Under the pieces are notes generated by a model. That model was not told the DNA's origin. It searched no databases and worked only from the letters and a program-made list of their open reading frames with translations. DNA of 42,593 bases from Pseudomonadota bacterium. GTDB taxonomy: Bacteria; Bdellovibrionota_B; Oligoflexia; Oligoflexales; CAIYRB01. A program made the position numbers and the translations under genes. The stretch covers positions 1 to 42,593 of the forward strand of contig JANOTL010000123.1 in the NCBI GenBank assembly GCA_031416315.1, read 5' to 3'. Shown one piece after another: positions 904 through 40,978 of the stretch. The first letter of the stretch is position 1, and the number at the start of each line of letters is the position of its first letter.

Positions 904-2141
904 AACTCCTGCCCGATAAGCTCCCCGAGACCTACTTCGGCTTTCCCGTCGATCCCGCCGTCACGCCCGAGGCGCGGAAGATGGCGGGGAAGCGCGGCAT
1001 CGCCATGGTCATCGCCATCATGATCATCTCGGTGATGATGCTCTTCACCACCGACCTCATCATCTCCTCGCAGGTGAACATCGCGCTCGCCTCCTCGCAA
1101 AGAGACAACATCAAAGCCGAGTACATGGCCAAGTCCGGCATGAACGCCGCCGAGCTCCTGCTCTCGGCCGACTTCGCCTACGACCTCTTCAACGTCCAAG
1201 CCAGCCAGGGCAAGGGCGCCCTCACCGACGGCTTAGGCGACTGGTGGGGCCTGATGAACGGCCTGCCGATCGGCGGCGAGACGCTCGACATGGTGAAGAG
1301 CTTCCAGGAAGGCTTCGAGCTGAACGCCGTCATGGACTCGGGCGTGATCGACCAGCTCCGGCTCTTCGACGGCTCCTTCACTTTGGACGTCTCCGACGAG
1401 AGCCAAAAGATCAACATCAACGACTGCTCGCAAGGCCGCTGCAGCGAGGTGCTGGAGATGCTGAAGGCCTTGTTCGCCTGCCCGGCGGAGAAGGCCTTCC
1501 TCGAGCAGAAGAAGGTGACCGGCGCCGAGCTCGCCTACCGGATCAAGGACTGGGTCGACCTCAAGTCGGACGCCTCGGAGGAATCCGGCTACAACGACGA
1601 GGACGAGCCCTACACCAAGCGGGAGCCGAAGCTCAGAGTCAAGAACGCGCCCTTCGACACCATCGACGAGCTGCGCCTGATCGAAGGCTGGGACGAGGAG
1701 ATCCACGCGGTCTTCGCGCCCTACCTCACCATCTTCCCGGTGCAGCAGAAATCGTCGGACAAGCACCTGATCAACATCAACACCGCCTCGCGCGCCATGC
1801 TGCAGTGCCTCTTCCCCGAGGCGAAAGGCGACTGCGCCGAGAAATCGGCGGTCCTCCTGAAGAAACGCGACGGCGACAAGGGCGCCCTCGGCGGCGACGG
1901 CAAGAAAATCCCCGACGTCCTGCGCGACACGCTCTGCTACACGGGCGAAGGCGGCAATGCCGGCGAGGCGAACAACCGCGCCAACTGGTTCAGCCAGCAG
2001 TCCTCGGTCTACCGCATCGAGTCGAGCGGCATCGTCAACGGCAGCGAGAAAAAAGTCGTCGCCGTCGTCGAGCGCGTCATGCCCGACCCGAAGAAGAACG
2101 AGAAGGCATCGCTCAAGCTCCTGTATTGGAAGATGCTATGA
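900..2141 (+). CDS. gspK: Type II secretion minor pseudopilin GspK
   Basis: KRG|IAMVIAIMII N-terminus; DESQKININ, IKDWVD, KNAPFDTIDELRLIEG and ININTAS motifs. GTG start overlaps the gspJ stop (alternative ATG at 981). Confidence 0.92.
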   Translation: MKLLPDKLPETYFGFPVDPAVTPEARKMAGKRGIAMVIAIMIISVMMLFTTDLIISSQVNIALASSQRDNIKAEYMAKSGMNAAELLLSADFAYDLFNVQASQGKGALTDGLGDWWGLMNGLPIGGETLDMVKSFQEGFELNAVMDSGVIDQLRLFDGSFTLDVSDESQKININDCSQGRCSEVLEMLKALFACPAEKAFLEQKKVTGAELAYRIKDWVDLKSDASEESGYNDEDEPYTKREPKLRVKNAPFDTIDELRLIEGWDEEIHAVFAPYLTIFPVQQKSSDKHLININTASRAMLQCLFPEAKGDCAEKSAVLLKKRDGDKGALGGDGKKIPDVLRDTLCYTGEGGNAGEANNRANWFSQQSSVYRIESSGIVNGSEKKVVAVVERVMPDPKKNEKASLKLLYWKML

Positions 2142-2280
2142 GCTGGCCAGGTCGCAAATTGCCGGCGAAACCGACTGGTCTAAGGCGTGCTTAGCCCGTC
2201 CGGGTGGAGCCTCGATTTGCAAGGCTGGCCCCACCCTGCGAAGATGAATTACCGCTTTTTATTACGGAGATAGACGCCTC

Positions 2281-3954
2281 ATGCAACGCGTCATTGGCCT
2301 CGACATCGGAAGCTATTCGATCAAAGCAGTCGAGATCGTCAATACGTTCAAATCGTATGAGATCGCCAATTTCTACGAGAACGTGATCCCGCACGTCGAA
2401 GAGCTCGATCAGGACGTGATCATTCCGGCGTGCATGGAGCAGCTCTTCCAGGAGAACAATCTCAAGGCCGACCGCATCCTGACCGCCATGCCGGGTCAGT
2501 ACATCTCCAGCCGGATCATGACGTTCGCCTTCGCCGACCAGCGCAAGATCGCCGCAGCGATCATGTCCGAGCTGGAAGATGCCGTGCCGTTCAACATGGA
2601 CGACATGATCATCGACTACCAGACGCTCGGCACCATGAACGGCCAGTCGATAGCGCTTGCCGTGATGACGCGGAAAAACTTTCTTTCCAGCTTCCTCGAG
2701 CACTTGCAGCGCATCAACATCGACCCGAAGCTCGTCGACGTCGACAGTCTCGCGTTCTACAACCTCTCCTCGCACATGGACATGCCGGCGGGGCAGTGCG
2801 CAGCGCTCGTCGACGTCGGCCACGAGAAGACCTCGGTTTGCATCGTGCAGGACGGCGTTCTGCGCATGTTCCGCTCGATCAACTTGGGCGGCCGCTATCT
2901 GACCGAGTTCCTCGCCAGAGACCTCGAGACGGATTTCGGCGAAGCGCAACGCGTCAAGCACCGCGTTTCCCGCGTCCTCTGCGACGAGGACCAGGCCGAC
3001 GACTTGACCGGCGACGACCGCATGATCGCCGAGCGGATGACGCTCGCTTCCAACGCGATCGTGAAAGAGCTCGGCCGCACGTTCTACGCTTTCAAGACCT
3101 GGGAGAAGACACCCCCGGCGAAGCTCTTCCTCTCCGGCGGTACGAGCCGTATCAAGAACTTCGACCGCTACCTACAGGACCAGCTCGAGATCCCGGTCAA
3201 GCTGAACCGCATCGACGAGACGGACCTGAAAATTAACCCGGCCCTTGCGCCCTACATGCACATTCTGCCCCAGTCGGTCGCGATCGGCATGCGCGCCGTC
3301 GGCTCGGTGAAGCGCCACTCGCAGATCAACCTGCGCCGCGGCGAGTTCGCCTACGTGCAAAACTACGAGTCGATCCTGAAGGGCGCGACCATCGCTTTCA
3401 AGATCGTTGCCGTCGCACTTCTCCTCCTTTGTTTCAGCTACGGCTTCAAGTACGTCTTCTACAAGCGCCAGATCGTCGCGCTGCAGGAGCAGTACCTGAA
3501 GGACTACACCACCGCCTTCACCACCGAGAAGAACAAGTACATCGGCGGCAAATACCAGTTCTCGAAGCTCCGTGGCGACGCGACGACGAAGCTCAACAAA
3601 GAGATCAACCACAAGCACAGCGCCGTCTCGATCTTCGCCGAAGAGAACCAGGCGAGCCCGGCGCTCCTGATCCTGAAGGGCCTTTCCGAGGGCGTGCCGA
3701 AGGACGTCAAGGTCGACATCACGCTCTTCCAGTACAACGCCGTGCCATCCGGCGGCGGCAAGCTGATCATCAAGGGCGAGACCGACGGCTACGCCTCGCA
3801 GCAGAAGATCCTCGAAGAGGTGAAAAAGATCACCGTTCTGAAGAACGTCGAGGAAAAGGGCACGGGCGCCAAGCCCGGTACCGACAACAAGGTCATCGAG
3901 TTCACCATCAACGCCGACTATGCGGGCGGCGCCAACGCCGCCCCCAAAGCCTGA
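2281..3954 (+). CDS. gspL: GspL-like assembly platform protein (PilM-type actin-like domain + TM + PilN-like periplasmic domain)
   Basis: IGLDIGSYSIKAV, LVDVGHEKT and LSGGTS actin-fold motifs; INLRRGEF then a TM helix; position between gspK and gspM. Confidence 0.8.
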   Translation: MQRVIGLDIGSYSIKAVEIVNTFKSYEIANFYENVIPHVEELDQDVIIPACMEQLFQENNLKADRILTAMPGQYISSRIMTFAFADQRKIAAAIMSELEDAVPFNMDDMIIDYQTLGTMNGQSIALAVMTRKNFLSSFLEHLQRINIDPKLVDVDSLAFYNLSSHMDMPAGQCAALVDVGHEKTSVCIVQDGVLRMFRSINLGGRYLTEFLARDLETDFGEAQRVKHRVSRVLCDEDQADDLTGDDRMIAERMTLASNAIVKELGRTFYAFKTWEKTPPAKLFLSGGTSRIKNFDRYLQDQLEIPVKLNRIDETDLKINPALAPYMHILPQSVAIGMRAVGSVKRHSQINLRRGEFAYVQNYESILKGATIAFKIVAVALLLLCFSYGFKYVFYKRQIVALQEQYLKDYTTAFTTEKNKYIGGKYQFSKLRGDATTKLNKEINHKHSAVSIFAEENQASPALLILKGLSEGVPKDVKVDITLFQYNAVPSGGGKLIIKGETDGYASQQKILEEVKKITVLKNVEEKGTGAKPGTDNKVIEFTINADYAGGANAAPKA

Positions 3955-3972
3955 GCCGGGAGTCATGACGCG

Positions 3973-4626
3973 ATGAGTGCCCTCGCCTCCTTTACCGACA
4001 AGTTCAAAGGCAGCTCGCACGGCGTCCTGAACGTCCTGCGCGTGCGCCTCTTCGGCGCCAACAACGAGAAGCTCGATTTCTTGATGGACAGCTTCTACAA
4101 GCTGTCGCCGACCCAGCGCTCGGGCGTCCTGGCCGCCATGGCCGGTCTCGTGGGCCTCGTCGTGCTCGGCGCCATCGGCCTCTACTTCAGCCAGGTCAAC
4201 ACGCTGAAGCAAGACCTCTCGAACAGCTTCGCGGCCCTGCACGAGCTGCAGTCCTTGAAGTCGCAGTTCGAGCAGGAGAACAAGAACTTCGAGAAGCTGG
4301 TCGAGACGATCGACAAGAAGACCAAGGGCCAGGCGCTCAAGCCCTTCTTCGAGAAGATCGGCCAAGACCTCGGCGTGACGCTGGAAGGCCTCTCCGACGC
4401 CAAGTCGCCGCTCGCCACCGACAACCCGCTCGCCGACAAGGTGCAGGAAGTCAAAGTCGAGATGCGGCTTCCCAACATCTCGATCCCGCGCATGATGAGC
4501 TACCTCGTGGAGATCGAGAAGTCGAACAAGTACCTGCGCGTCCAGGATCTCCAGATCCGCGGCCGTTACGGCACGAAGCTCTTCTTCGACGGTCAGGTCA
4601 AGGTCCGCGGCTACGGAGTGAACTGA
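3973..4626 (+). CDS. gspM: Type II secretion protein GspM-like
   Basis: LSPTQR then a TM helix, coiled coil and ferredoxin-like C-terminus (EVKVEMRL...YLVEIE...LRVQDLQI); operon order. Confidence 0.7.
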   Translation: MSALASFTDKFKGSSHGVLNVLRVRLFGANNEKLDFLMDSFYKLSPTQRSGVLAAMAGLVGLVVLGAIGLYFSQVNTLKQDLSNSFAALHELQSLKSQFEQENKNFEKLVETIDKKTKGQALKPFFEKIGQDLGVTLEGLSDAKSPLATDNPLADKVQEVKVEMRLPNISIPRMMSYLVEIEKSNKYLRVQDLQIRGRYGTKLFFDGQVKVRGYGVN

Positions 4627-5574
4627 ATGAAAAAGCTGCTGCACATCCTCCTGTTCGTCGGGCTCTTCCTGTTCAGCTTCGCGCTCTTCCTCTTCCTGAC
4701 TTTCCCGTACGAGGTCTTGAAGGAGTCTTTGTCCGCGGAGATCGCGCAGTCGACCGGCTTCAACGTCCGCATCGGCGAGATGGGGGCCTCGCTACCGCTC
4801 GGCATCAAGGCGAAGGACATCAAGATCGAGAACGCCGCGGGCAACTCGAGCATGACGCTCACCTCGATGTCGGCCAACGTCAGCGCCCTCAGCTTTCTCA
4901 TGGGCAAAGTCCGCGCCGAGGCGGCATTTGCCGCCTCAAGCGGCATCGGCAAAGAGCCGGGCGAGATGGACATTACCCTCGATTTCGGCCTCCTCGACCT
5001 GATCAAGGGCGAGGCCATGCCGCGCCGCTTCCAGTTCGTATCCGACAAGTTCCCGATCGACCAGCTCGTCGCCTTCGCGCTGTCTACGGCTGCGTCGGGA
5101 CCCAACGCCAACCAGATGGTCGCGCCCCTCATGACCGCGATCGGGATCACCGGCGCGCTCACCGGCCGGATGGACTTCGACCTCAACTCGACGAACCCGA
5201 CGCAGTCCGCGGGCTCCATGGACGTCAAGCTGGTCAACGCGACTCTGATGCTCGACCATCCGTCGATCGGCCTGCAGAACCAGACCTTCAAGACCGCCGA
5301 GATCAAAGCTCAGGTGAAGAACGGCGTCCTGGAGTTCGCCAAGGGCTCGGGCTTCGTCTCCCAGGAGCTTTCCATCCTCACCGACGGCAAAGTCGCGCTC
5401 AAAGCCGTTCCCACGGCCTCGATCCTCGATCTTCAGGTGGCCGTGCAGCTCGACGGCGACCTGAAGGAGAAGCTGGGCGTGGTCATGGACATGGCCACTG
5501 GCAAGTCGGCCGAGGGCAAGGTCACCATGCAGGTGCGTGGACCGATGGAGCAGCCCAACGTTCAGACCTTCTGA
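4627..5574 (+). CDS. gspN: Type II secretion protein GspN (deltaproteobacterial type)
   Basis: N-terminal TM followed by LTFPYE; beta-rich body ending VRGPMEQP; abuts gspM. Confidence 0.75.
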   Translation: MKKLLHILLFVGLFLFSFALFLFLTFPYEVLKESLSAEIAQSTGFNVRIGEMGASLPLGIKAKDIKIENAAGNSSMTLTSMSANVSALSFLMGKVRAEAAFAASSGIGKEPGEMDITLDFGLLDLIKGEAMPRRFQFVSDKFPIDQLVAFALSTAASGPNANQMVAPLMTAIGITGALTGRMDFDLNSTNPTQSAGSMDVKLVNATLMLDHPSIGLQNQTFKTAEIKAQVKNGVLEFAKGSGFVSQELSILTDGKVALKAVPTASILDLQVAVQLDGDLKEKLGVVMDMATGKSAEGKVTMQVRGPMEQPNVQTF

Positions 5575-22304: not shown

Positions 22305-22928
22305 ATGACTGATATTCGCGTTCTTCTAATCGATGACCATCGCCTGTTTCGGGCCGGCCTCCGTAGCCTCATGGAAGGCTTCGAAGGGGTCACCGTGGCG
22401 GGTGATAGCGGATTTTTGCCATCCGTGCTCGAGCTCGCGGCCAAGACCAAGCCAGACGTCGTCGTCATCGACTTCAACTGGCGCATTGGCAACGCCGCCG
22501 ACATCCAACGCGAGCTCGCGAAAGCGGCCCCGGCTGCGAAGATGCTGGCTCTCACCGTTGTCCGCGGCAACGAGGCCATCGCCCGTGCGCAGCGCGAGGG
22601 CGTCCAAGGCTATCTTACGAAGGATGCGGGTCCCGACGAGCTGCGGGAGGCGCTCTCCGCCGTCGCCGAAGGCAAGAGCTACGTCGGCGCCATGGCGCGC
22701 GAGGGCCTGGACAGCAAAACGTTGATCTCGCTCACCCCGCGTCAGCGGGAGGTGCTGCAGCTGATCGCCGAGGGTAAGAACACCCGGGAGATCGCCCGTC
22801 TGCTCAACGTCAGCGTGAAGACGATCGAGACCCACCGTGCTCAGTTAATGGACAAGACGGGGATCCACGACGTTCCGGGGCTCGTGCGCTTGGCGCTCCG
22901 GATCGGTCTCGTCGCGCTCGACGGTTAA
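22305..22928 (+). CDS. NarL/LuxR-family response regulator
   Basis: LIDDH, phosphoacceptor VIDF, GYLTK; HTH LTPRQREVLQLIAEG...KTIETHR. Confidence 0.95.
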   Translation: MTDIRVLLIDDHRLFRAGLRSLMEGFEGVTVAGDSGFLPSVLELAAKTKPDVVVIDFNWRIGNAADIQRELAKAAPAAKMLALTVVRGNEAIARAQREGVQGYLTKDAGPDELREALSAVAEGKSYVGAMAREGLDSKTLISLTPRQREVLQLIAEGKNTREIARLLNVSVKTIETHRAQLMDKTGIHDVPGLVRLALRIGLVALDG

Positions 22929-23410
22929 GGAGGCGGGAGCTTCTGCGCCATGCTGGTGACCAGCGGCGCGAACTCCGTCGCCCACGCCGGCTGAGCCCCG
23001 TTGTGACCGGCGTTGATCTGCTGAATGATCCGCGACGCGGCAGAATCCACGGTCACGTACTTCTTTGCGGTCGCATACGCCAAGTCTAGCCCCGGCGAGG
23101 CGAACGGGAAGGAGTTCTGGCCGGCGTGGCAGGGTGAGCAGTACTGCTTCATCTTCACGTAGAGGCCGAGGCGGAAATCCTCGCGCGCCGGATCCACGGC
23201 GCCGCCGTGGCCCTTGGCGATGGTCGTGACGGCGACGACCTTGGAGGTCGAGATGACGACCGCGCTTTTCGCGGTCACCGCGGTCGAGCCGTAGGCGTCG
23301 CCCAAGCTCTGCGTCGGCTTCGTCACGTCTTTGGGCTTCACGTCCTGACAGGCGGGAAGGCTCGCGCCGAGGCAAGCTAGCAGGAGGACCTTCTTCATTG
23401 CCTTCTTCAT
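22925..23410 (-). CDS. Small monoheme c-type cytochrome lipoprotein
   Basis: MKKAMKKVLLLACLGASLPAC lipoprotein signal; CSPCH at 23126-23140; ATG overlaps the upstream TGA. Confidence 0.75.
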   Translation of the reverse strand: MKKAMKKVLLLACLGASLPACQDVKPKDVTKPTQSLGDAYGSTAVTAKSAVVISTSKVVAVTTIAKGHGGAVDPAREDFRLGLYVKMKQYCSPCHAGQNSFPFASPGLDLAYATAKKYVTVDSAASRIIQQINAGHNGAQPAWATEFAPLVTSMAQKLPPP

Positions 23411-24438
23411 TTGACGGCCCCCGACGCGCCGAGATCGACGGTGATGGTCTTGTAGTTGATTCCCAGGATCGTATCGCCCAGGGTATTGCTCACCTTGCTC
23501 AGAGAGACCATGCTCGCCAGCGGCAAGCCGGCGACGATCGCGCATTGGTGCAGCCGCCACCCGTATTTTTCGTACTGCCTGAGTGTGTCCTCGAAGCCGA
23601 CGAGGCCCTTCAAGGAGCCGATGAAGCCGTCGAACGTGCAAGGATAGGGGGCCAAGGTCGCGCCCGGGACGTACTTCTTCGTCGAGTAATCGTAGAAGGC
23701 GCTGGCCGGGTTCGCCTCTAGCGCGAGCAGCGGCATGGCGGCCGCCCAGTTCGCTGCCGAGTTGACCGGCGGGCCGTCCTCGCAGGCGGCGTTGGCGAAG
23801 ATCTTCTCCAGGCTTTGCGAGCTCGTCTCCTCCTCGTCGGAGGAATAGGCGACGGGCGGCGTTAGCTCCGTCGTCTCGGGGACGTCGGATGCCTCCGTGC
23901 ACTGGTCGACCTGCGTGCCCCAGGCCCTGAAGAGGTCGATCTGCGTCTGGGCCAAGGGCGGGCGCGGAAATTGCGGCATCGGGCGCTCGTTCTCGGGATA
24001 AAGAGCGCGCACTTCGTTGTCGGTCGCCGCCGGATTCGCGGCTTTGTAGGCCGCGGCGGCGACGCCGTTTTCGAGGCGCTTCACGACGTTGTCGACGTGG
24101 TCCTTCAGGTAGAAGCAGTTGGTCGAGTTCTGCCGATTCTCGATGTCGCCCCGGTGACAGTCGGCGCAGTTCTCTTGCATGATCGGGTAGAGCGTCGCTG
24201 CATACGACACGCCGCCTTGTAGCGAAAGCGGCTGCCCGCCGCTGCCGACGGAGCAAGAACGTGTGTTCGCTGCGGCCGTGGCGTCGGACGAGAGGCCCGG
24301 TCCTGCCGCCGCCGCGCCCTCGGTGATCACTTGCGCCGCGACCGGCGTTCTATGGTCTTGATAGTCGCCGTCGTCGTCTTTGCCGCAAGCGGACAAGACG
24401 CAGCCGAGCAAGGCCAGGGCCAACTTGGAACGAAGCAT
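23407..24438 (-). CDS. Monoheme c-type cytochrome lipoprotein, Cys-rich
   Basis: Lipobox VLSAC; YPIMQENCADCH (CxxCH at 24154-24168); downstream PMP and IDLFRAW. Confidence 0.78.
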   Translation of the reverse strand: MLRSKLALALLGCVLSACGKDDDGDYQDHRTPVAAQVITEGAAAAGPGLSSDATAAANTRSCSVGSGGQPLSLQGGVSYAATLYPIMQENCADCHRGDIENRQNSTNCFYLKDHVDNVVKRLENGVAAAAYKAANPAATDNEVRALYPENERPMPQFPRPPLAQTQIDLFRAWGTQVDQCTEASDVPETTELTPPVAYSSDEEETSSQSLEKIFANAACEDGPPVNSAANWAAAMPLLALEANPASAFYDYSTKKYVPGATLAPYPCTFDGFIGSLKGLVGFEDTLRQYEKYGWRLHQCAIVAGLPLASMVSLSKVSNTLGDTILGINYKTITVDLGASGAVK

Positions 24439-24643
24439 GCGCAGAATCCTCCAGGTGCCTCCGGCCGGTTTTCCCCGCCGCCGACAGGATCTTCCATCGG
24501 TCGCTCGGCGATTGACTTTAACCGAAGGAGGGATGTCCCTGGTTTCGCGGGCCTCTAGATCTCGATTTCAGTTTTTCCTCGACGTGCCGATGGCTGGGTC
24601 TGGTTGCGGCGCCGGCCGGGCCACTAGAGGGGGAAACTTTCAC

Positions 24644-25948
24644 ATGCGCGTTAGAGAACTCGCGCTCGCCATCGCCACCGCAGCGACCACTCTGGTCTCT
24701 GCTCCGGCGCATGCTGACGAGACCAGCCAAGCGTACCGCCTGCATCGCCGGCTCGCCGGCGTCAATCCGTCGAAGACGATCCTCGAGACGATGAAGCTCG
24801 CGATCCGCGAGGGCCGTGCGGTCGACGCGGCGCGCATCGCCATCGACAACGAGGAGCACAGCTTCTTCTACAACGCGACCCTGAAGAAATTCTTCAATCC
24901 GTGGCTCGACGAGGAAGGCAATAACTCCATCCCGCTGAACGACGCGACCGCGACGCTCATCGGGATGACGCGCGACGACAAGAGCTTCCAGCAGATCTTC
25001 GCGACCAACGTGTCCTACGTCGGCACGGGCTTCGATGCCGCGGTAGCTGAGCGCATCCGCCCGCCCGAGCCCGGCAACAACCTCCATTATCTGCAGATGG
25101 AGCGCGAAGGCGTCGACTTGAAGAAGGTGCTGACGCCGATCAAGCAGACCGACGCCCTCCTCGACCCGACCCAATCGATGCAGGGGGAAACCGGCGTCCC
25201 CGCCGGCATTCTGACCTCGCGCGGCTGGGCCAGCGTCTACTACCAAGCGGGCACGAACCGTGCCCCAGTGCGCTTCTTGCTGAAAAATTTCCTCTGCCAG
25301 GACATCGACGCCTTCCACGACACGACCGTGCCGGACGACGAGGTGCGGCGCGACCCCGACCGCGCGCCGGGCGGCGAGTCGCACGTCTACAACAACAAGT
25401 GCAAGGGTTGCCACGCGGGCATGGACCCGATGTCGCGCGCTTTCGCTTATCTCGACTTCGACGACGAACGCCGCAGCATGGTTTACACCCGCCCGACCGA
25501 GGCCACGGCCTCCGAGGGCGTGAAGTGCGCCGAGGGCTCCGAGGTCGTCCTGAGCCCGGACTCGACCTTCGAGGACAAGCTCCGCTGCGCCGTCGTGAAG
25601 AAATACATGAACAACAAGGCGTCCTATCCCGAAGGCTACGTCGTCAAGAACGACCAATGGAAAAACTTCTGGACGGGCGGCAACAACGCCCGCGTCGGCT
25701 GGCCGGCCGCCAAGGGCCAAGTGATCGAGGGCTCCGGCCCGAAATCCCTGGGCCTGATGTTCGCGCAGACCAAGGCCTTCCCGCGGTGCATGGCCAAACA
25801 GGTGATGGCGCACGTGTGCCTCGCCACCGACTTCGAGAGCCAGATCATCAAGGACAAGCTCGATCGGCTGACCGAGAAATTCCAAGCGGCGAACTTCAAC
25901 ATGAAGAGTCTGTTCGCCGAAACCGCCGTCATGTGCATGGGTCTTTGA
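24644..25948 (+). CDS. Secreted CxxCH protein of DUF1588/DUF1585-like type
   Basis: Signal peptide ending AHA; RLHRRLAGV; GILT..GTNR..FLC; CKGCHAGMDP (CxxCH at 25400-25414); C-terminal SLG..FPRCMAKQV...FNMKSLF. Confidence 0.75.
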   Translation: MRVRELALAIATAATTLVSAPAHADETSQAYRLHRRLAGVNPSKTILETMKLAIREGRAVDAARIAIDNEEHSFFYNATLKKFFNPWLDEEGNNSIPLNDATATLIGMTRDDKSFQQIFATNVSYVGTGFDAAVAERIRPPEPGNNLHYLQMEREGVDLKKVLTPIKQTDALLDPTQSMQGETGVPAGILTSRGWASVYYQAGTNRAPVRFLLKNFLCQDIDAFHDTTVPDDEVRRDPDRAPGGESHVYNNKCKGCHAGMDPMSRAFAYLDFDDERRSMVYTRPTEATASEGVKCAEGSEVVLSPDSTFEDKLRCAVVKKYMNNKASYPEGYVVKNDQWKNFWTGGNNARVGWPAAKGQVIEGSGPKSLGLMFAQTKAFPRCMAKQVMAHVCLATDFESQIIKDKLDRLTEKFQAANFNMKSLFAETAVMCMGL

Positions 25949-25968
25949 ACTAGAGGGGGATACGTCAA

Positions 25969-26706
25969 ATGTTGCGTTATTCACATGCGGCGACCATCGC
26001 GCTCATTGCCATCTCGGCACTCGGCTCGTGCGGTCGCAAAGACGACGGCGGCAAGGACGCGGGCGTCGCCGCGCCCGCGGCGGCCACGCCGTCGCCGGCC
26101 TCGACTCCCGCGGTCGCCACCACGCCGCCGCCCTCGAGCGCGGCTCCGGACGAGACCAAGGCCCAGCTCGGCGACGAGACCGTCGGCGTCAAGAACGGCG
26201 AGCAGCTCATCTCGCACTACAGCCTGATGACCAGCGTGAAGTTCGAGGAGCTTGACGAGAATCAGAGGAACGAGGTGCTGCGCCTCAAGCAGTCGCTTCC
26301 GCTCGACAACGCCGCGGGCAAGTTCAACAGCGCGCACGTCCTCGCCGCGACCAAGCTCGCGACGACCTTCTGCAACGAGTTCCTGCGCCGCGAGCAGGAT
26401 GCGCGCTCGAACCCGCAGACGACGTACACCGCGAAGCTCCCCGACCTCGACTGGAACTCGAGCAAGTTCCCGAAAGAGATCGCGCGCCCGGTCTACGCCT
26501 ATTTCGTCGAGATCTTTTGGGGCGTCGACCTCGCCAACCAGCCCGCGAAGAGCGCTTGGGAGCCCGAGCTCGATGCATTGATCGACGCCCTCGCGGTGCC
26601 CATGCCCCCCGGCGCGGGTCAAGAGCCGCAGCCGATTGGCCTGCGCGGCTCGGCGCTGGCTTTGTGCGTAACGGTGGCCTCCTCTTTCTCTTCCCTGGAA
26701 CTGTGA
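25969..26706 (+). CDS. Hypothetical lipoprotein, helical domain with two further Cys
   Basis: Lipobox LGSC, P/A/T linker, GVKN..Q..LKQSLP..FNSAH..KLATTFC. Confidence 0.75.
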   Translation: MLRYSHAATIALIAISALGSCGRKDDGGKDAGVAAPAAATPSPASTPAVATTPPPSSAAPDETKAQLGDETVGVKNGEQLISHYSLMTSVKFEELDENQRNEVLRLKQSLPLDNAAGKFNSAHVLAATKLATTFCNEFLRREQDARSNPQTTYTAKLPDLDWNSSKFPKEIARPVYAYFVEIFWGVDLANQPAKSAWEPELDALIDALAVPMPPGAGQEPQPIGLRGSALALCVTVASSFSSLEL

Positions 26707-26716
26707 GGAATTCGCG

Positions 26717-28288
26717 ATGAGCTTCGATCTCAAACGACTTTACAACCGCGCAAAGGCGCAAGGCCTAAACCCGATCGTGCACGAGAATCACAAAGCGCCC
26801 CTGACGCGCCGTGATCTCTTGGCGCAGGGTTTCTTGGCAGGAACGGGCTTCGTCGTGGCGCCCAGCCTCCTGTCGATGCTTTCCACCAACGCGTATGCCG
26901 CAGGCGACTGCGGCGCCGCCGTAGGCACCACCGAAGTGGCGTTCGACGGCATGCGGGTCATGGCCTTCGAGGCCGCCGGCGGCATGAACATCTCCGGCGC
27001 CAACTTCATGGTCTGGGGCAAGGGCGGCGCAGGCGACTTCCTACCGGCCAGCGCGCTCGGCGTGCTGGGCGTGCCCGCGACGATGGCGACCTCCGACCAG
27101 GTGTCGACTGAGTTCGGCATCCCGATGCATTCGCGCAGCGCCCTGCTAGAAGGCTTGCGCCAGGCAACGACGCCGGAATGCCGCGAGCGCGTCAACGGCT
27201 TTCCGATCTGCGTCACCTCGATGGACGACTCGAACGCGAACCAGTTCAGTCTTTCCTATTACGCCTTCAAGTCGGGCGCGCTCGGTTCGCTGTCGCACGT
27301 GATCGGCACTGAGAGCACGGCGCACGGCGCGCGCTCGCTGGCGCCGACCGAGTCGATCGTGTCGTCCCTTTCCGCCACCCAAGTGCGCTCTTTCGAGGAC
27401 TCGCGCAACTTGGTGTCGGCGGCGTCGCTCGAGACGCTCCTCCCGGGTCGCGTCGGCGCCATCCTGCGCGCGGCGGCCGGAATGAGCAGCTCGCGCATCG
27501 AGCAGCTGCAGAACCAGCAGCTCCCGGAGCAGATCCGCGAGCTGGTGCGCTGCGGCTACGTGAAGTCGGCGGACGCGGCGAGCGGCAACCTCTCCGATGC
27601 GGTCGACGGCTCCAAGGACACGGCGCTGATCACCGCCCTTTCGGCGATCACCGAGACCAACACGCGGAACTTCGCGGTCAACCGCAACATGGCGCAAGGC
27701 GAGAATCAGAGCACGGTGGCGATGACCTACCTCTTGCTGAAGGGCTACGCCGGCTTCGCGACCAAGGTCATGGGCGGCCGCGACTACCACAACAACCCGC
27801 GCGCCGAGACCAACCAGAAGGACTTCGACGTCGGCTTCCAAATCGGCACGGCGCTGCAGATGGCGCATCAGACCGGTCGGACGCTCGTCACCCTTCTCTA
27901 CACGGACGGCGGCGTCGGCTGCTCGGATCCGAACACGCCCGACGATGCGAATCTGGACTCGCCGGCCGGCGGCCAAGCAATGTTCACCGGCGACCGCGGC
28001 GAAGGCGGCGCCATCATCGTGATGGCCTACCATCCGACCGCGCGCCCGCCGATCGCCAACCCGAAGCAGCAAGTCAATGCGTTCAACCCCAGCGGCGCCG
28101 TGGAGCAGAACTACGCCGAGGGCAAGATCGTCGCCAACAGCGTCACCAACGCCGTCCAATGCGCGATCTTGAACATCCTGGCGCTGCACGGGAAGCTGGG
28201 CGAGGCGGAGAAGGTCTTGGGCGCCGCGCACCCTTTCGCGGATCCGGCGGTGATGCAGCACTACGTCATGTTCGGGCAATGGGGCTGA
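26717..28288 (+). CDS. Tat-exported DUF1501-like protein
   Basis: TRRDLL twin-arginine signal ending AYA; EAAGG near the N-terminus, GGRDYH and YTDGG segments. Confidence 0.7.
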   Translation: MSFDLKRLYNRAKAQGLNPIVHENHKAPLTRRDLLAQGFLAGTGFVVAPSLLSMLSTNAYAAGDCGAAVGTTEVAFDGMRVMAFEAAGGMNISGANFMVWGKGGAGDFLPASALGVLGVPATMATSDQVSTEFGIPMHSRSALLEGLRQATTPECRERVNGFPICVTSMDDSNANQFSLSYYAFKSGALGSLSHVIGTESTAHGARSLAPTESIVSSLSATQVRSFEDSRNLVSAASLETLLPGRVGAILRAAAGMSSSRIEQLQNQQLPEQIRELVRCGYVKSADAASGNLSDAVDGSKDTALITALSAITETNTRNFAVNRNMAQGENQSTVAMTYLLLKGYAGFATKVMGGRDYHNNPRAETNQKDFDVGFQIGTALQMAHQTGRTLVTLLYTDGGVGCSDPNTPDDANLDSPAGGQAMFTGDRGEGGAIIVMAYHPTARPPIANPKQQVNAFNPSGAVEQNYAEGKIVANSVTNAVQCAILNILALHGKLGEAEKVLGAAHPFADPAVMQHYVMFGQWG

Positions 28289-28331
28289 AGCCTTGGGCTC
28301 AAGTTTCGGGCTGATCTAGAGGAGTGGCACG

Positions 28332-29627
28332 ATGTTTCGGTTCTACGCGCTCATGATGGCGGTTGGGCTCATCTGTTCCTGCGGAAAAGACGAGGACGAA
28401 GACAGCGCGGCGCCGAAGCCCTTTAAGGCTCTGGTGAAGGATGCGGGCGTCAACGGCTCGGCGGCTGCGGCGCCGGCCGAGGCGGGCGCCTTCAGCCCCG
28501 ACAACCAGGTGTCCCTCACGGCGTTCGGCGAGACGATGTGGCCCGTGCTCCGCCAACATTGCGGCGGCTGTCACGGTGGCTCCACCTCACCCTTCTTCGC
28601 CGTCGACGACAAGTACCAAGCGCACAAGACCGTCATCGAATCGCACCTGGTCGCGCCCGCGGCGGCCCCTTCGTCCCGCTTCGTCACGCGCCTCTCGTTG
28701 AACAACCACAACTGCTGGTCGGAATGCCCGAACGATGCGCAGACCATGCTCGCCAGCATCAAGGCCTGGACGGACAAGGCCGGGATCAAGAGCGGCGGCG
28801 ACAACCTGATCCGCGTCGGCCCCGTGGCCGTCGCGACCAGGAAAACCATCACGCTGATGGGCGGCGGCGGCAACTGGGTCCGCGAGGCCGAGAACTTCGA
28901 CGCCTTGGGCGCCGGCTTCGAGGTCGTCGAGGACGGCACCGCCTCCGCGAAAAAGGTCCTGGGTTTGGTCCCGGTCGCCGAGGGCCAGGAAGCGCCCGCG
29001 GGCGAGTCGCGCTACGAAATGGTGATCCCCGAAGGCAAATACAACCTTTGGATGCGCCTGCGCAACACGGAGCGGGGTCGGGCAGTCTGGTTCCGGCTGA
29101 ACGGCGGCCGCGAGGTGCAGGCCGGCATCGAAGGCAACTCGGACGACTGGGTCTGGGTCAAGGTCGCCGACGGCGTCGACCTCGCGCCGTTGAAGGGCGC
29201 CGACTACGCCGAGCTCGCCATCACCCGCTCGCAGGTTCTGGTCGATATGGTCGCCTTCACGACCAATGCCGTCTTCGACCAAGCTCAAATCGAGAACACC
29301 GGCCGTCGTCAGGCGCTGGAATGGGACCTCACCCCGGCGCTCGGAAAAAAAGCGGTGCTGACGATGCTGATCGATCCGACGCCCGACGGCACCGCCTACC
29401 TCCTGAGCCGTCCGACCCTACGCCTCGACGAGCCAACGAAGGTCAAGCTGGAGAAAATGTACGTCCTAAACAACGGCGAGTACAACCCGCAGTACAGCAC
29501 CTTCGCGAGCCTGTCGACCACCGTGGCGGCGACCACCGAGCTGAGCCCCCGCGGTTTGGTCGTCATCGCTCGCGACGGGAACGACGCGATCACGCTCGGG
29601 TTCGGGGGACTGGCGATCGTGCCGTGA
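28332..29627 (+). CDS. Monoheme cytochrome c lipoprotein with carbohydrate-binding-like beta-sandwich domain
   Basis: Lipobox ICSC; WPVLRQHCGGCH (CxxCH at 28560-28574); HNCWSEC; EAENF...GKYNLWMR...WVWV...VDMVAF jelly-roll pattern. Confidence 0.75.
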   Translation: MFRFYALMMAVGLICSCGKDEDEDSAAPKPFKALVKDAGVNGSAAAAPAEAGAFSPDNQVSLTAFGETMWPVLRQHCGGCHGGSTSPFFAVDDKYQAHKTVIESHLVAPAAAPSSRFVTRLSLNNHNCWSECPNDAQTMLASIKAWTDKAGIKSGGDNLIRVGPVAVATRKTITLMGGGGNWVREAENFDALGAGFEVVEDGTASAKKVLGLVPVAEGQEAPAGESRYEMVIPEGKYNLWMRLRNTERGRAVWFRLNGGREVQAGIEGNSDDWVWVKVADGVDLAPLKGADYAELAITRSQVLVDMVAFTTNAVFDQAQIENTGRRQALEWDLTPALGKKAVLTMLIDPTPDGTAYLLSRPTLRLDEPTKVKLEKMYVLNNGEYNPQYSTFASLSTTVAATTELSPRGLVVIARDGNDAITLGFGGLAIVP

Positions 29628-30979: not shown

Positions 30980-32359
30980 ATGGCCAAAACCCCCCATTTT
31001 CCCGCGTCGTTCGTCGACCTCCTGGCTTGTCCGCGCTGTGCGGCGCCGCTCGGCGCCGACCGTGAAGCGTTTCGCTGCACCGCTTGCGCCGTTGAATATC
31101 CTAGTGTCGCCAAGCTGCCGTGGCTTTTCGCCGATCCCGAGGCCAAGCTCGCCGAGTGGAAAAGCCTCGCGGCCGTCGGCTTAGGCGAGCTGCGGGAGTC
31201 CGAAGCGCTGCAGAAAGAAGCGCTGCGCGCCACGACGCTGACGCCCCTCGCGCAGCGCCGCATGCGCAAAATGCTGCAAGCTACCGTCGAGAACCGGAAG
31301 ACCCTCCTCGAGCTCTTCGAGCCTTTCGTCGCCGCTGCCACGGTCGAGACCAACGCCGACGAGCTGCGCGTGCTCTCGAAAAAGCTCGCCGCGACGCAGT
31401 CCTTCTCCGCCTACGCGACCAATCTCTTTCGCGACTGGGCCTGGTCGGAGGCCGGCGCCCCGCCCGAAGCCGACGAGAACATCCAGGCGCTCTCCGCCGT
31501 GCTCCGCGCCGCGGCGGCCTCCCATGCCGGCGGCGATCTCATGATTCTGGGCGCCGGCGCCGGCCGCCTCGCCTTCGATCTCGCCTTCAATCCGCACTTT
31601 TCTCGGGTTCTGGCCACCGACGTGCACCCCATCCTTCTTTCGGTGGGCGCCCGGGCGGCGGCGGGACGCGCGGTGTCTTTGCACGAGCTGCCGCTGATGC
31701 CCGACGGCATCGACAACGCCGCCGTCGCGCGGCGCCTCGTCGCTCCCTCGGCCGCGCCGGCGGCGAAACTCGCGCACGCTTTCGTCGACGCGCTCGAGCC
31801 CGCGCTCGCCCGCGAGAAAGCCGACACCGTCCTGACGCCCTGGCTCCTGGACATCTTGCCGGAGAGTCCCGCGCTCTTCGCAGAGCGCGTCAACGCGCTC
31901 TTGAAGCCCGGCGGCGTCTGGCTCTTTCACGGCACCACCGCGTTCCGGGACGGCCTCTCCCGCGACGAGCTGCTGGACCTCGTCGGCGCGGCCGGTTTCG
32001 AGCTCGTGTTCACTGAGACCGTCCGCCTGCCGTACCTCTGCTCCCCCGCCAGCGGCCATGGCCGCCGGGAGAACGTGCTCGGTTTCGCCGCGAAGAAAGT
32101 CGAGTCGCGCGCCATGCCCGCGCCGTTCCGCGTCCTGCCGCGCTGGCTCGCCGAGGGCGCGGAGCCGATCCCGCGCCCTCAGGGATTGGCGCAACTGGCC
32201 CTGATGCACTCCCTTTACGCCGAGGTCCTGGCGCTGGTCGACGGACGCACGACGCTCGTGCAGCTCACGGCGGCGCTCGCCGCTCGGAAAAATCTCGACC
32301 CGGCCGCCTTGCGCGGCGCTCTCACCAGCTTTTTCGCGGGCGTGGCCGAGCTCTCCTGA
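30980..32359 (+). CDS. Class I SAM-dependent methyltransferase (N2227/carnosine N-methyltransferase-like) with N-terminal CxxC-CxxC knuckle
   Basis: LACPRC...CTAC; LFRDW; LGAGAGRLAFDL; TPWLLD; LKPGGVW. Confidence 0.75.
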   Translation: MAKTPHFPASFVDLLACPRCAAPLGADREAFRCTACAVEYPSVAKLPWLFADPEAKLAEWKSLAAVGLGELRESEALQKEALRATTLTPLAQRRMRKMLQATVENRKTLLELFEPFVAAATVETNADELRVLSKKLAATQSFSAYATNLFRDWAWSEAGAPPEADENIQALSAVLRAAAASHAGGDLMILGAGAGRLAFDLAFNPHFSRVLATDVHPILLSVGARAAAGRAVSLHELPLMPDGIDNAAVARRLVAPSAAPAAKLAHAFVDALEPALAREKADTVLTPWLLDILPESPALFAERVNALLKPGGVWLFHGTTAFRDGLSRDELLDLVGAAGFELVFTETVRLPYLCSPASGHGRRENVLGFAAKKVESRAMPAPFRVLPRWLAEGAEPIPRPQGLAQLALMHSLYAEVLALVDGRTTLVQLTAALAARKNLDPAALRGALTSFFAGVAELS

Positions 32360-38937: not shown

Positions 38938-40779
38938 TTACTCCGCCTTGCGTTTGAAGGCGTCGAGCGCATTGAGCAAGGCGCCCGCGCCGACGTAGCC
39001 AGTGACGTTCTGCCGTTTGTCGGGGGCGCCGTTGGGCGGCAAGAGCACCAGAGTCGGCAGGCTCTGGAGCCCGTATTTCGCCTGGATCTTGTCGTTCGGC
39101 TCGTTCGACTCGGTGAGGTCGAGCTTCGCCATCACCCAGCCGGCCGCTAACGCTTTCTGTACCTCTGGATCGACGAAGGTCGTCACGTCCATCTTTTTGC
39201 AGGCTTCGCACCACTCCGCCCACATGTCGATCAAGATCGGCCTACCGGCCGCGGTCGCCGCGGCGATTGCTTCGGCCTCGGTGCGGTAGACCGTCACCGG
39301 GCCGTGCGCGTCGCCCGGGCTCGCGATCGCAGCGCCCGTCGTCAGCCTTTGCGACAAGGCGAAGATCCCGACACCGAGCACCACGGTCGGCAGGATCATC
39401 GACGCCTTGCTGTTTTGCAGGTTCGGCACGATCACCCACACCGCGGCCAAGAGCACCCCGGAGACGAGCGCGATCGGTGCCACCGTCGCCCACAGCGGTC
39501 TAAGCTCGGCGAAAGTCGAGTACAGCGGAATCCGCAGGTAATAGAGCCCCAAGCCGAACATCACGGAGGCGAAGAGGAGCTTCACGCCGACTTGAACCTG
39601 CGGCCCGACCTTGATCGCAGACACCTTCGCCGCCGCGCCGCCCAGCAGAATGTAGGGCAGGCCGAAGCCCAAGCTGTAGACGACGAGAAGGAGGGTCGAC
39701 TGCGCGATGCCCTGACCGGCATTCGCGGTGTAAGCCAAGAGCGCCGCCAAGATCGGGCCCGTGCACGGCGCCGCCACCAGGCCCGCGCCCGTGCCCATCG
39801 CGAACGTATTCTTCAGCGACGGCTTGCCGGATCCCAAGCGGTTCCCGAGCATCTGCAGCTTCGAGAAGTCGCCGAACCCGAGCATCGTCACGCCGAGCAG
39901 GATCATCAAGACGGCGAACACCGCGTTGAACGTCTTGCTCGCGAGGAGGCTCCCGAACATGCCGCCGCTCAGAGCGGCGACCAGCCCCAGGACCGAATAC
40001 GTCGCGACGATCCCCATCGCATAGGCCGTCGCGTTCACGTACGCCGAGCCGCCTTGCCGCGACAAAAGGCGCAGCGTGATCGGGATCATCGGATAAACAC
40101 AGGGCGTGAGGTTGGACAGGAGGCCGCCGACGAAAACGAGGCCCAAGAGCATGCCGAAGCTCAACGAGCCGCCCTTCAGCATGGTCGCCAAGCGTGATTC
40201 GAGGTCCACGTCCCGCTCGACCGGCGCCGCCGGCTCAGGGGGCGAGGGTGCTGCGATCGTCGGCTCGGCGCTCGAAGCTAGCGCCTTCGGCGCCACCGCG
40301 GCCGCGCGCATCGGCGCGAACATCTTCTCCGTGTAAGGGAAGAGGCAGATCACCTTCGTACAGCCCACGTACTTCGCCGCGAATTGGAAGGTGTCCCGCT
40401 TCGTGTCCACCGGACCCTCGAGCGTGACGAAGAACTCGCCCCCGTCGAACACCTCGACCTCCTTTCCGGAGACCGGGTCGACGATCCTCTTCGTCGGCGG
40501 CGGCGTGACGCTCAGCACCGTGAAGCCCGAAGGCCCCGAGAAGCTCAAGTTGTCTGAGTAGATCGACCAGCCTGGGTCGACGAGGAGCCGAGCTCCGACT
40601 TGGACGAGCGTCGGGCTGACGATGGTCGCCTCGATCGCTTCCCAATGGACGACGTCGGCCGGTTTGATGTCCTGGGCTTTGGCGTCCTGGATGGCGTCGC
40701 CGTCGAACTGGGCGCGGGCGCCCCCTCCGAGCGCAAGACCCAAGACGATCGCCACCGAAGCCCACGATTGACGCAGCAC
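38938..40779 (-). CDS. dsbD: Thiol:disulfide interchange protein DsbD
   Basis: CTKVIC (alpha), LTPCVYPMIP and AAPCTGP (beta), WAEWCEACK (gamma thioredoxin); GAGGAGG SD before GTG 40779. Confidence 0.92.
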   Translation of the reverse strand: MLRQSWASVAIVLGLALGGGARAQFDGDAIQDAKAQDIKPADVVHWEAIEATIVSPTLVQVGARLLVDPGWSIYSDNLSFSGPSGFTVLSVTPPPTKRIVDPVSGKEVEVFDGGEFFVTLEGPVDTKRDTFQFAAKYVGCTKVICLFPYTEKMFAPMRAAAVAPKALASSAEPTIAAPSPPEPAAPVERDVDLESRLATMLKGGSLSFGMLLGLVFVGGLLSNLTPCVYPMIPITLRLLSRQGGSAYVNATAYAMGIVATYSVLGLVAALSGGMFGSLLASKTFNAVFAVLMILLGVTMLGFGDFSKLQMLGNRLGSGKPSLKNTFAMGTGAGLVAAPCTGPILAALLAYTANAGQGIAQSTLLLVVYSLGFGLPYILLGGAAAKVSAIKVGPQVQVGVKLLFASVMFGLGLYYLRIPLYSTFAELRPLWATVAPIALVSGVLLAAVWVIVPNLQNSKASMILPTVVLGVGIFALSQRLTTGAAIASPGDAHGPVTVYRTEAEAIAAATAAGRPILIDMWAEWCEACKKMDVTTFVDPEVQKALAAGWVMAKLDLTESNEPNDKIQAKYGLQSLPTLVLLPPNGAPDKRQNVTGYVGAGALLNALDAFKRKAE

Positions 40780-40978
40780 GCTTCGCCTCCTCAGAACACC
40801 GAGATTCTGCCCCTGCCATCGATGATAGCATCGGCTGATCGGCAATCAACCCTGAGATTTCATTATCGAAATCTTATCTCTTGACCATGCCGGGGAGTTC
40901 TTCTAGAAAGCTAAGCTCCGTTGGCCCTTCGACTTTCCGTCTCTCCATACTTTATATATTCACGGCGGGTGCGCATTC

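Follow-up and report, generated by a model that had tools for sequence, protein, structure and literature searches.

A divergent gene cluster with a conserved four-gene core

Do the six genes at positions 22925-29627 of contig JANOTL010000123.1 (42,593 nucleotides, analysed over its whole length and called the window; assembly GCA_031416315.1, from a bacterium of the Oligoflexales) encode one system, and if so, what might it do? A first-pass annotation, made from the sequence alone, had proposed two operons of genes for exported proteins which diverge from the region 24439-24643. All six open reading frames (ORFs), here termed A to F, are present and carry export motifs. The conserved unit, however, is a core of four genes, C-D-E-F (24644-29627), and not the complete six-gene cluster. 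Gene C (24644-25948, forward strand) encodes a 434-residue Sec-type exported monoheme protein (CKGCH at residue 253). It is followed on the same strand by D (25969-26706), encoding a 245-residue lipoprotein with a non-heme domain and two conserved Cys, by E (26717-28288), encoding a 523-residue twin-arginine (Tat) protein with a predicted alkaline-phosphatase/sulfatase fold, and by F (28332-29627), whose product is a 431-residue lipoprotein consisting of a heme domain (CGGCH at 77), a middle domain resembling carbohydrate-binding modules (CBM) 6/35 and a conserved C-terminal domain. The two accessory genes are on the reverse strand. A (22925-23410) encodes a 161-residue lipoprotein with one c-type heme domain (CSPCH at 91, distal His136), and B (23407-24438) a 343-residue lipoprotein with one heme domain (CADCH at 91) and a Cys-rich C-terminal domain. 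The gaps within the operons are -4, 20, 10 and 43 bp, and the divergent intergenic region (24439-24643) measures 205 bp. A, the ORF annotated earlier at 22925, starts at MKKAMKK and not at the upstream TTG.

The conservation of gene order was analysed in 36 loci, comprising 34 fetched around full-length copies of C in related genomes, the window and its paralogue. C, D and E are adjacent and in the same order in 34 of them, and F is next in 31. Of the five incomplete loci, four are truncated by a contig edge; the fifth, L124, has no E, which is found elsewhere in the genome. Six further loci were fetched on E, five of which show C-D-E and three of these F as well. C homologues, a few of them weak, occur in 23 of 41 related genomes. 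Moreover, the copy numbers of full-length C and of E are equal in all 28 genomes searched with both (16 with and 12 without the genes), a comparison in which kin among the genomes are not independent. E is present in 29 of the 86 genomes of a phylum sample, and in none of the 25 from two families outside the order. The pairwise identities of C, D and E correlate across 30 loci (Spearman 0.72-0.79, permutation maximum 0.40), which means co-inheritance only. In two relatives' loci, L140 and L143, C and D are fused. A locus of another member of the Oligoflexales (L001), the best match among named genomes, has the same split layout as the window, and a metagenome scan with C alone confirmed no relative. 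Thus, the conserved synteny by which the first-pass annotation wished to be judged is found for the core, both in these loci and in 65 of 79 named loci with a fused form (see below). It does not extend to A and B, which were found in 3 of the 41 related genomes and adjoin C in only two.

The proposal of four monoheme proteins is borne out, since A, B, C and F contain exactly one CxxCH motif each, and D and E none. Such a motif arises by chance in 0.07-0.33% of 20,000 shuffles per protein, and it is present in 75 of 2,437 proxy genes of the window's genome. At these frequencies four CxxCH proteins among six neighbours are not a chance finding. Signal peptides were judged by motif and conservation. 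A lipobox-type Cys can be read from the sequences of A (C21), B (C18), D (C21) and F (C17), in agreement with the four lipoproteins reported earlier. The lipobox Cys of F (ICSC) is shared by all 17 F proteins aligned. Among the homologues encoded as separate proteins, 31 of 32 of the D type and 26 of 32 of the F type have a lipobox, as have 65 of 68 fused ones. Anchoring of lipoproteins in Escherichia coli is decided by the Lol rule, in which an Asp at position +2 is the determinant. None of the four lipoproteins has an Asp at this position, and the corresponding residue in the homologues is mostly Gly, Ser or Ala, suggesting that they are anchored in the outer membrane. The signal of C is of a plain, cleavable Ala-His-Ala type, and none of 94 C proteins has a lipobox. 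The genome encodes TatC, CcmE and cytochrome-assembly proteins, so that A, B, C and F combine the features expected from motifs of a c-type cytochrome: a conserved CxxCH, an export signal and maturation genes in the same genome. None of the six genes has an NCBIfam match, and Pfam returned a single sub-threshold match, to DUF1588 in C.

C is a distant relative of PSCyt3 proteins

The kinship of a heme protein in the cluster with DUF1588/DUF1585 proteins, suggested by the first-pass annotation, was recovered for C. HHalign aligns its residues 28-427 with the C-terminal regions of 11 canonical proteins that contain DUF1587 (98.4%, E 4.5e-15, 287 columns). By this profile match C is a true but distant DUF1592-DUF1588-DUF1585 (PSCyt3) relative. 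C itself scores below the curated cut-off of PF07627 (PSCyt3; 20.4 bits versus 27, E 6.3e-4). The PSCyt3 profile matches 32 of 56 C homologues at E<=1 (best 1.7e-4), and PSD2 also matches 32 of the 56 (best E 1.8e-5). DUF1592 is not matched by Pfam in C, and its position within the protein is one that we assume. DUF1549/DUF1553, named earlier as the other possible partner family, found no such backing: PSCyt2 (PF07583) matches four of the 56 homologues with a best E of 0.011, and PSD1 (PF07587) none.

The CxxCH motif is invariant in 55 of 55 C homologues, in an alignment that was not selected on the motif. A His about seven residues before it, present in 8 of the 11 canonical proteins, has H247 as its nearest position in C, which is mostly Arg in the homologues. 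A search for a sixth heme ligand revealed no invariant His or Met beyond H257, with the near-motif M260 lying three residues later. Invariant residues are T204, R206, D237, C218, C382 and C392. The four further Cys of C probably form two disulfides. T204, N205, R206, D237, R240, K320 and N341 make up a cluster of invariant or nearly invariant polar residues. From this cluster and the lack of a conserved sixth His or Met we infer that the heme of C is open or unusually ligated, and probably catalytic. The model of C (pLDDT 93.9, pTM 0.91), when searched as a whole and not by domain, has no match in the PDB (Foldseek best E 2.8). A wide VIA-align comparison gave a best Z of 6.6, which covers the last three helices only, and a second look gave a best Z of 3.6. 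A sequence search of the PDB recovered only the CxxCH region of cytochrome c6 (E 0.017).

D could not be assigned with similar firmness. None of 94 D domains has a Pfam match, PF07626 was not found in the window's genome, and the Atlas matches of D are unnamed clusters. Comparison with the N-terminal parts of 30 canonical proteins gave HHalign E-values of 0.037-0.079, the best of 20 column shuffles being 0.065, which at most hints that D is possibly the equivalent of DUF1587/DUF1595.

E is predicted to adopt a phosphatase-type fold

E had been predicted to be exported by the Tat pathway, and this is supported by the sequence TRRDLL at residues 30-35, the RR of which is shared by 99% of the relatives in a diverse set of 138 (each at least 440 residues long, from 150 listed). 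The family is large, with 1,596 clusters at E 0.001 and 718 below 1e-30 (clusters at 50% identity). The model of E (pLDDT 82.5) retrieves exclusively members of the alkaline-phosphatase/sulfatase superfamily among the 50 structural matches listed (best Z 12.2, rmsd 3.9, 205 aligned residues in VIA-align; Foldseek best E 5.8e-4), and E is therefore predicted to have this fold. A sequence search of the PDB matched the Tat leader only.

D356, H358, G398 and D426 are invariant in all 138 relatives. D171 and D397 are found in 137, N175 in 134, and 135 have an Asp, Asn or Glu at position 85. The classic enzymes of the alkaline-phosphatase superfamily have His-rich zinc sites. The site of E, rich in Asp and with one His, would in contrast suit a hard metal (Ca, Mg, Mn or Fe) rather than two zinc ions. 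Cys65, just after the predicted cleavage site, is conserved in 96% and Cys279 in 94% of the relatives. A further conserved residue is His25 in the n-region of the Tat leader (93%), and a His precedes the RR by no more than ten residues, usually four or five, in 125 of 129 E leaders. It lies in the part of the leader that should stay in the cytoplasm, and a literature search found no paper on such a Tat-leader His.

The earlier description of E as DUF1501- or DUF1552-like holds only in part. Neither DUF1501 (PF07394) nor DUF1552 (PF07586) matches E or any of 27 homologues, and E is outside the 12 DUF1501 matches and the DUF1552 matches of its genome. The DUF1501 lead for E in the Atlas has a score of 0.87, and the comparison with the genome's one DUF1552 protein gave an HHalign E of 0.062. 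With the DUF1501 proteins of the genome, however, E shares three collinear motifs, namely the first-strand GG, GGxDxH and [ST][DE]xG (two HHalign segments, E 0.0037 and 0.0061, at low probability). As far as profiles tell, E is a family separate from DUF1501 with which it weakly shares motifs. The nearest Atlas cluster (0.93) is automatically named 'general secretion pathway protein GspF'. The GspF domain of type II secretion systems sits in a polytopic inner-membrane protein, and we rejected the name as a misannotation, because E has no Pfam or NCBIfam match, a Tat leader and a soluble phosphatase-type predicted fold.

Thirteen DUF1501/DUF1552-like genes are found elsewhere in the genome, on contigs C7, C28, C47, C65, C107, C110, C137, C138, C143, C159, C169 and C174, ten of them with a CxxCH protein within 6 kb. 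They are a large paralogous expansion of heme/Tat modules.

F, A and B carry further heme domains

F contains CGGCH, the distal His126 and C128/C132 in its heme domain. Heme domains of the type found in F and A have a His 35-56 residues after the CxxCH in 180 of 182 cases, and the heme of F is, judging from these motifs, of the His/His type. A CBM-like domain on one of the heme proteins, also noted in the first-pass annotation, is supported: in profile searches of the PDB, the middle domain of F matches CBM6/35-type domains from carbohydrate enzymes (E 6e-6 to 3e-3). This module varies, being CBM6/35-like here, LamG in Gammaproteobacteria and absent in several relatives, and in the F-type protein of locus L027 the middle is extended by long Ig/cadherin repeats. 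The swappable module looks like a domain for targeting a substrate or a surface.

Orthologues of A are found in genomes G002 (locus L112) and G001 (L220). A and B lie head-to-head with C in the window and in L112, at 40-60% identity, and in G001 they are at a contig end. The heme domain of A belongs to the same family as those of F and of a gammaproteobacterial fusion protein (E 2e-8 to the fusion in L053). B has nine database relatives, in all of which C91, C94, H95 and M154 are invariant, as is the sequence Pro-Met154-Pro. The invariant CxxCH and Pro-Met-Pro suggest that the heme of B is likely ligated by His and Met. B also shows a weak link to a PSCyt1-like ORF on contig C138. PSCyt1 (PF07635) has no match in A, B or F at E 0.1, and a sequence search of the PDB with B returned nothing. 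In other relatives (L114, L119, L123 and L142) this spot beside the core is taken by mono- or diheme lipoproteins of other kinds. We favour the reading that A and B are extra electron carriers, specific to this lineage and added to the core. It is doubtful, though a real possibility, that the two are an unrelated pair of cytochrome lipoproteins which became neighbours of C by chance in one family, an explanation compatible with any function of the core proposed below. The rarity of B and the presence of the pair beside C in only two genomes would fit it. The family shared by the heme domains of A, F and the gammaproteobacterial fusion, the head-to-head layout retained at 40-60% identity and the different heme lipoproteins at the same spot in other loci speak for recruitment instead.

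Gammaproteobacteria encode a fused form of the module

GTDB genomes were scanned for the pattern CxGCH[AS]GMD, which gave at least 586 loci, and the best 80 of these were taken. All counts of named loci refer to 79 of the 80, L001 being left aside, and counts of neighbours to the 52 with long flanks. The first-pass annotation had placed the module in Planctomycetota, Myxococcota and Bdellovibrionota, but it is not restricted to these phyla and is common in Gammaproteobacteria. In 60 of the 79 named loci C is followed by a lipoprotein of about 830 residues and then by E. The lipoprotein combines two heme domains of the F/A type, a LamG domain, the C-terminal domain of F and the D domain. Among the other loci five have one heme domain, five are frameshifted, eight are cut by contig ends and L045 is without E; overall, the fusion of heme, F and D domains is found in 65. 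Elsewhere, then, D and F form part of a single polypeptide, and A corresponds to a free copy of the heme domain. These gene fusions point to one multi-subunit unit, as had been supposed. Cultured members of the Gammaproteobacteria, among them Marinobacter, Microbulbifer and Glaciecola, have the fused form. A further type of fusion is seen in L146:2986-6159 and L147:2966-6076, where proteins of about 1,050 residues combine an N-terminal F-type heme domain with a C-like C-terminal region.

The 52 well-flanked loci have recurrent neighbours: DUF3570 (49), an SH3-barrel protein (49), an OMP_myx_plus barrel (48), TlpA (44), TPR proteins (39 and 27), ApbE (34) and a methyltransferase (11). Only the methyltransferase recurs beside the split form (in the window, L118 and L128). 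A diheme propeller protein with the middle domain of hydrazine synthase alpha accompanies 49 of the 52 loci and 70 of the 79. It is exemplified by L010:6938-9535(-), a divergent diheme lipoprotein of about 900 residues with PD40 repeats (middle domain E 1.5e-15), and it holds the position which A and B have in the window. The set of ApbE, DUF3570, DUF4266 and thioredoxin is, in the accessible part of the study by Méheust et al. 2021 (PMC8238504), an extracytosolic electron-transfer module. This flavinylation module is a regular neighbour of the fused form, and the accessible part of that study does not mention adjacent heme/Tat genes. Directly upstream of C in L075:915-9929 are genes for TPR proteins, ExbB, two ExbD and an AgmX/TonB-like protein. 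An ORF with 21 CxxCH motifs lies about 6 kb upstream of C in a metagenome-assembled genome (MAG) of Deltaproteobacteria (L027:1628-3457). L015, a MAG contig titled Klebsiella pneumoniae, carries a fused module typical of marine and soil Gammaproteobacteria and is probably mislabelled or misbinned.

A second copy of C-D-E-F is found in the window's own genome, on contig C16 (L081:8058-14235), with identities of 38%, 24%, 34% and 30%. It is followed by a gene for a 387-residue diheme lipoprotein, which has no Pfam or NCBIfam family and is present in 6 of the 36 relatives' loci.

A possible redox complex and its alternatives

What could the core do? Our leading, though tentative, proposal, for which we see somewhat less than an even chance, is that C-D-E-F is an outer-membrane-tethered redox-enzyme complex which acts on a glycan or a similar anionic polymer. 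C, D, E and F would assemble into a complex anchored in the outer membrane, with D as its lipid-anchored scaffold. F, and here also A and B, would be heme electron carriers, and F would in addition hold the substrate through its CBM-like domain. The carrier hemes, attached by the Ccm system, would pass electrons to or from the probably catalytic heme of C. E would be the partner that is exported folded and metal-loaded by the Tat pathway, its predicted metal site being placed beside the heme of C, and the substrate that is oxidised or modified would be a carbohydrate or another anionic polymer. Formation of a complex is favoured by the fusions, the matched copy numbers and the repeated recruitment of electron carriers. 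A glycan is favoured by the swappable middle domain of F and by the link to cellulose of distant CxxCH/DUF1587 proteins (PMC8981238, PMC10916295, PMC12542752). Such proteins, for example Cbp2D, matter for growth on cellulose according to the accessible text of PMC8981238 and PMC10916295.

Several observations weigh against this proposal. Kinship between C and the X132 domain of Cbp2D is presumed, from the DUF1587 label of the latter. CBM6/35-like and LamG folds are also known from proteins with no affinity for sugars. No gene for a glycoside hydrolase, a sulfatase or a TonB receptor recurs beside the module in the related genomes. Searches of the window's genome, which is 93.3% complete, found neither ApbE nor DUF3570 (the control for the latter matched nowhere), so that the gammaproteobacterial electron partner was not found there. 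H148 (85/93), M50 (85/93) or K320 (92/93) could be the sixth ligand in C, H148 and M50 being conserved in 82-91% of the C homologues. E has no confidently placed Ser, Thr or Cys nucleophile: S/T172, found in 122 of 138 relatives, is only a candidate, and assignment of the nucleophile by profile comparison with seven phosphodiesterase-family proteins failed (HHalign E 0.81). Finally, the unit is not intact everywhere, as C-D and a second E lie apart from each other in G013, the nearest 10 kb around the module in L045 contain no E, and L228 shows no F.

A second and unlikely reading is that the module is part of an envelope-building or surface-display machine. E would then be either a phosphoryl-transfer or hydrolytic enzyme acting on a cell-envelope glycoconjugate, like EptA, LtaS and BcsG, or a non-catalytic scaffold, and the hemes would be structural or sensing. 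EptC, MCR-1, EptA, LtaP, GacH, BcsG and YejM are among the structural matches of E with Z 9.5-11.2, near the top match; E, however, has no membrane domain of the EptA/LtaS type. Named loci lie beside OMP_myx_plus barrels, TPR proteins and the ExbB/ExbD/AgmX-TonB set, which resembles a gliding 'core complex' of unknown function from Gammaproteobacteria in the accessible part of its description (PMC3169522), but barrel, TPR and TonB genes are near the module in none of the 36 relatives' loci. The long Ig/cadherin stalks on some F-type proteins, as in L027, would also suit surface display, and DUF1501/DUF1800 genes accompany bacterial chitin synthases, according to what is accessible of PMC5122149. 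The repeated recruitment of extra heme proteins, on the other hand (A and B here, the diheme lipoprotein in 6 of 36 relatives' loci, the diheme propeller in 70 of 79 named loci), fits electron transfer better. We consider it improbable that the module handles metals in the periplasm or at the cell surface, with the Asp-rich site of E capturing Fe, Mn or Ca and the hemes reducing or oxidising the metal for uptake or deposition. The conserved residues of E, five Asp/Glu, one Asn and one His, would fit a hard metal, ExbB/ExbD/TonB-like genes adjoin the module in some named loci, and a minority of the ApbE/DUF3570 clusters, 25 of them with VIT1, have been tied to iron assimilation (in the accessible text of PMC8238504). 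Yet no iron transporter or receptor recurs in the neighbourhoods, and the 13 further DUF1501/DUF1552-like genes (10 beside a CxxCH protein) and the variable binding domains fit many organic substrates better.

The redox complex acting on a polymer could also be given a bolder form, which is rather unlikely, in that C and E would together represent a class of oxidoreductase not described so far, with two cofactors, which the domain swaps of F would direct to different polymers. C would contribute a fold not represented in the PDB, with a heme c whose sixth site is open, and E would be its partner of the alkaline-phosphatase fold, in which the zinc site has turned into an Asp-rich hard-metal site. 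The lipoprotein cytochromes would connect C and E to the outside. The leader His of E would serve as a 'histidine switch', retaining the enzyme until it is exported, and might be modified by a linked carnosine-methyltransferase-like enzyme.

Such an enzyme may be encoded downstream of the core, outside the range of the earlier annotation, by a single-copy gene for an S-adenosylmethionine-dependent methyltransferase (30980-32359, forward strand), a probable accessory gene. Its product has an N-terminal CxxC...CxxC and a weak match to carnosine N-methyltransferase (E 9.5e-4; 4e-5 in L073). Homologues with 25-38% identity adjoin the module in 12 of the 79 named loci and in two (L118 and L128) of the 34 relatives' loci fetched. 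That it methylates His is a speculation.

Relation to known systems

The C-terminal part of PSCyt3-PSD proteins (DUF1587-DUF1595-DUF1592-DUF1588-DUF1585) is matched by C, and the partner gene of these proteins is presumably the one named DUF1552. In the accessible part of He et al. 2017 (PMC5615132), PSCyt3-PSD proteins have an adjacent conserved gene of unknown function and, as in the module described here, an extra heme domain, a variable carbohydrate-binding domain and a neighbouring Tat protein; the function is unknown in both. The module differs in that its parts are separate genes (C, lipoprotein D and lipoprotein F), that C is below the Pfam cut-off, lacks the His before CxxCH and has invariant residues of its own family, and that E has no DUF1552 match. 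In PVC (Planctomycetes, Verrucomicrobia and Chlamydiae) bacteria, modules of DUF1501 with PSCyt1/PSCyt2/PSD1 have been proposed to serve membrane-targeted electron transfer, as far as the accessible text of Kamneva et al. 2012 (PMC3542564) goes. They likewise place a Tat DUF1501-like protein beside a cytochrome-motif protein, with optional LamG-type domains. In our case, however, PF07394 misses E, the heme partner is PSCyt3-like and not PSCyt2/PSD1, and the host is not a PVC bacterium.

A third resemblance is to Cbp2D of Cellvibrio japonicus and to TERTU_2913 and TERTU_3803 of Teredinibacter, with X183 and X132 domains (PMC8981238, PMC10916295, PMC12542752). These, too, are secreted and combine a CBM, a small electron-transfer cytochrome and a CxxCH domain. 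In the accessible text their CxxCH domain is preceded by a DUF1587-type domain, and the authors knew of no characterised homologue. According to the same text they are, unlike the proteins studied here, single secreted polypeptides linked to cellulose and to lytic polysaccharide monooxygenases (LPMOs), whereas the window's cluster has neither an LPMO nor a cellulase gene as a neighbour. With the superfamily of alkaline phosphatases, nucleotide pyrophosphatases and sulfatases E shares the predicted core fold, and its acidic and His residues appear to lie at the ends of the expected strands, as they do there. E has only 6-14% identity to these enzymes, and their further His position appears to be Asp426. 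The superfamily His after the second Asp corresponds, as we take it, to Gly398 in E, and to our knowledge an obligate heme partner is not a feature of this superfamily.

A match to a characterised complex was looked for and not found, and the literature searched, which covered few subscription papers, contained no study of the C-D-E-F gene family. The module is real, conserved and uncharacterised, and it differs from PSCyt/DUF1501 modules in its split lipoprotein layout and its active-site sets. Modules of the PSCyt/DUF1501 type as such have been in print as uncharacterised since at least 2012, in the accessible parts of PMC3542564 and PMC5615132. They are abundant and have expanded in Planctomycetes, Verrucomicrobia and the lineage of the window. 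The E family, with its 718 clusters, is almost invisible to Pfam and NCBIfam and is automatically misnamed GspF. The split form reveals the subunit boundaries, and the occurrence of the fused form in cultured bacteria makes the module testable by ordinary knockouts and purification. Confirmation of the proposed redox complex would extend the known heme-protein folds by one and might bring a reaction new to the alkaline-phosphatase superfamily. If C and E do act as a two-cofactor enzyme, this would supply a chemistry for the whole PSCyt/DUF1501/DUF1552 group, of which the window's genome alone has about 15 copies.

Surroundings of the cluster

The GC content and the third-position GC content (GC3, 0.85-0.89 in the cluster genes) match those of the flanks, and the origin of the cluster as a horizontal island was rejected. 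No sigma-70 or sigma-54 consensus promoter was found in the 205-bp divergent region, and promoter and terminator scans of the locus gave results at chance level. A reverse-strand sigma-54 match in the window falls within the coding region of B. A sigma-54 motif upstream of C on the sense strand is seen in 4 of 79 named loci and in none of the 36 relatives' loci, and is thus not general. Type II secretion-like genes (with a GspK domain, PilM/FtsA-like, GspM-like and AsmA-like) are located about 17 kb away (846-5574, forward strand); a link to the module was rejected, since this linkage recurs nowhere. Finally, 9 kb downstream of the cluster (38938-40845, reverse strand) the window encodes a full DsbD-type thiol:disulfide interchange protein, which is a possible electron source for heme maturation.

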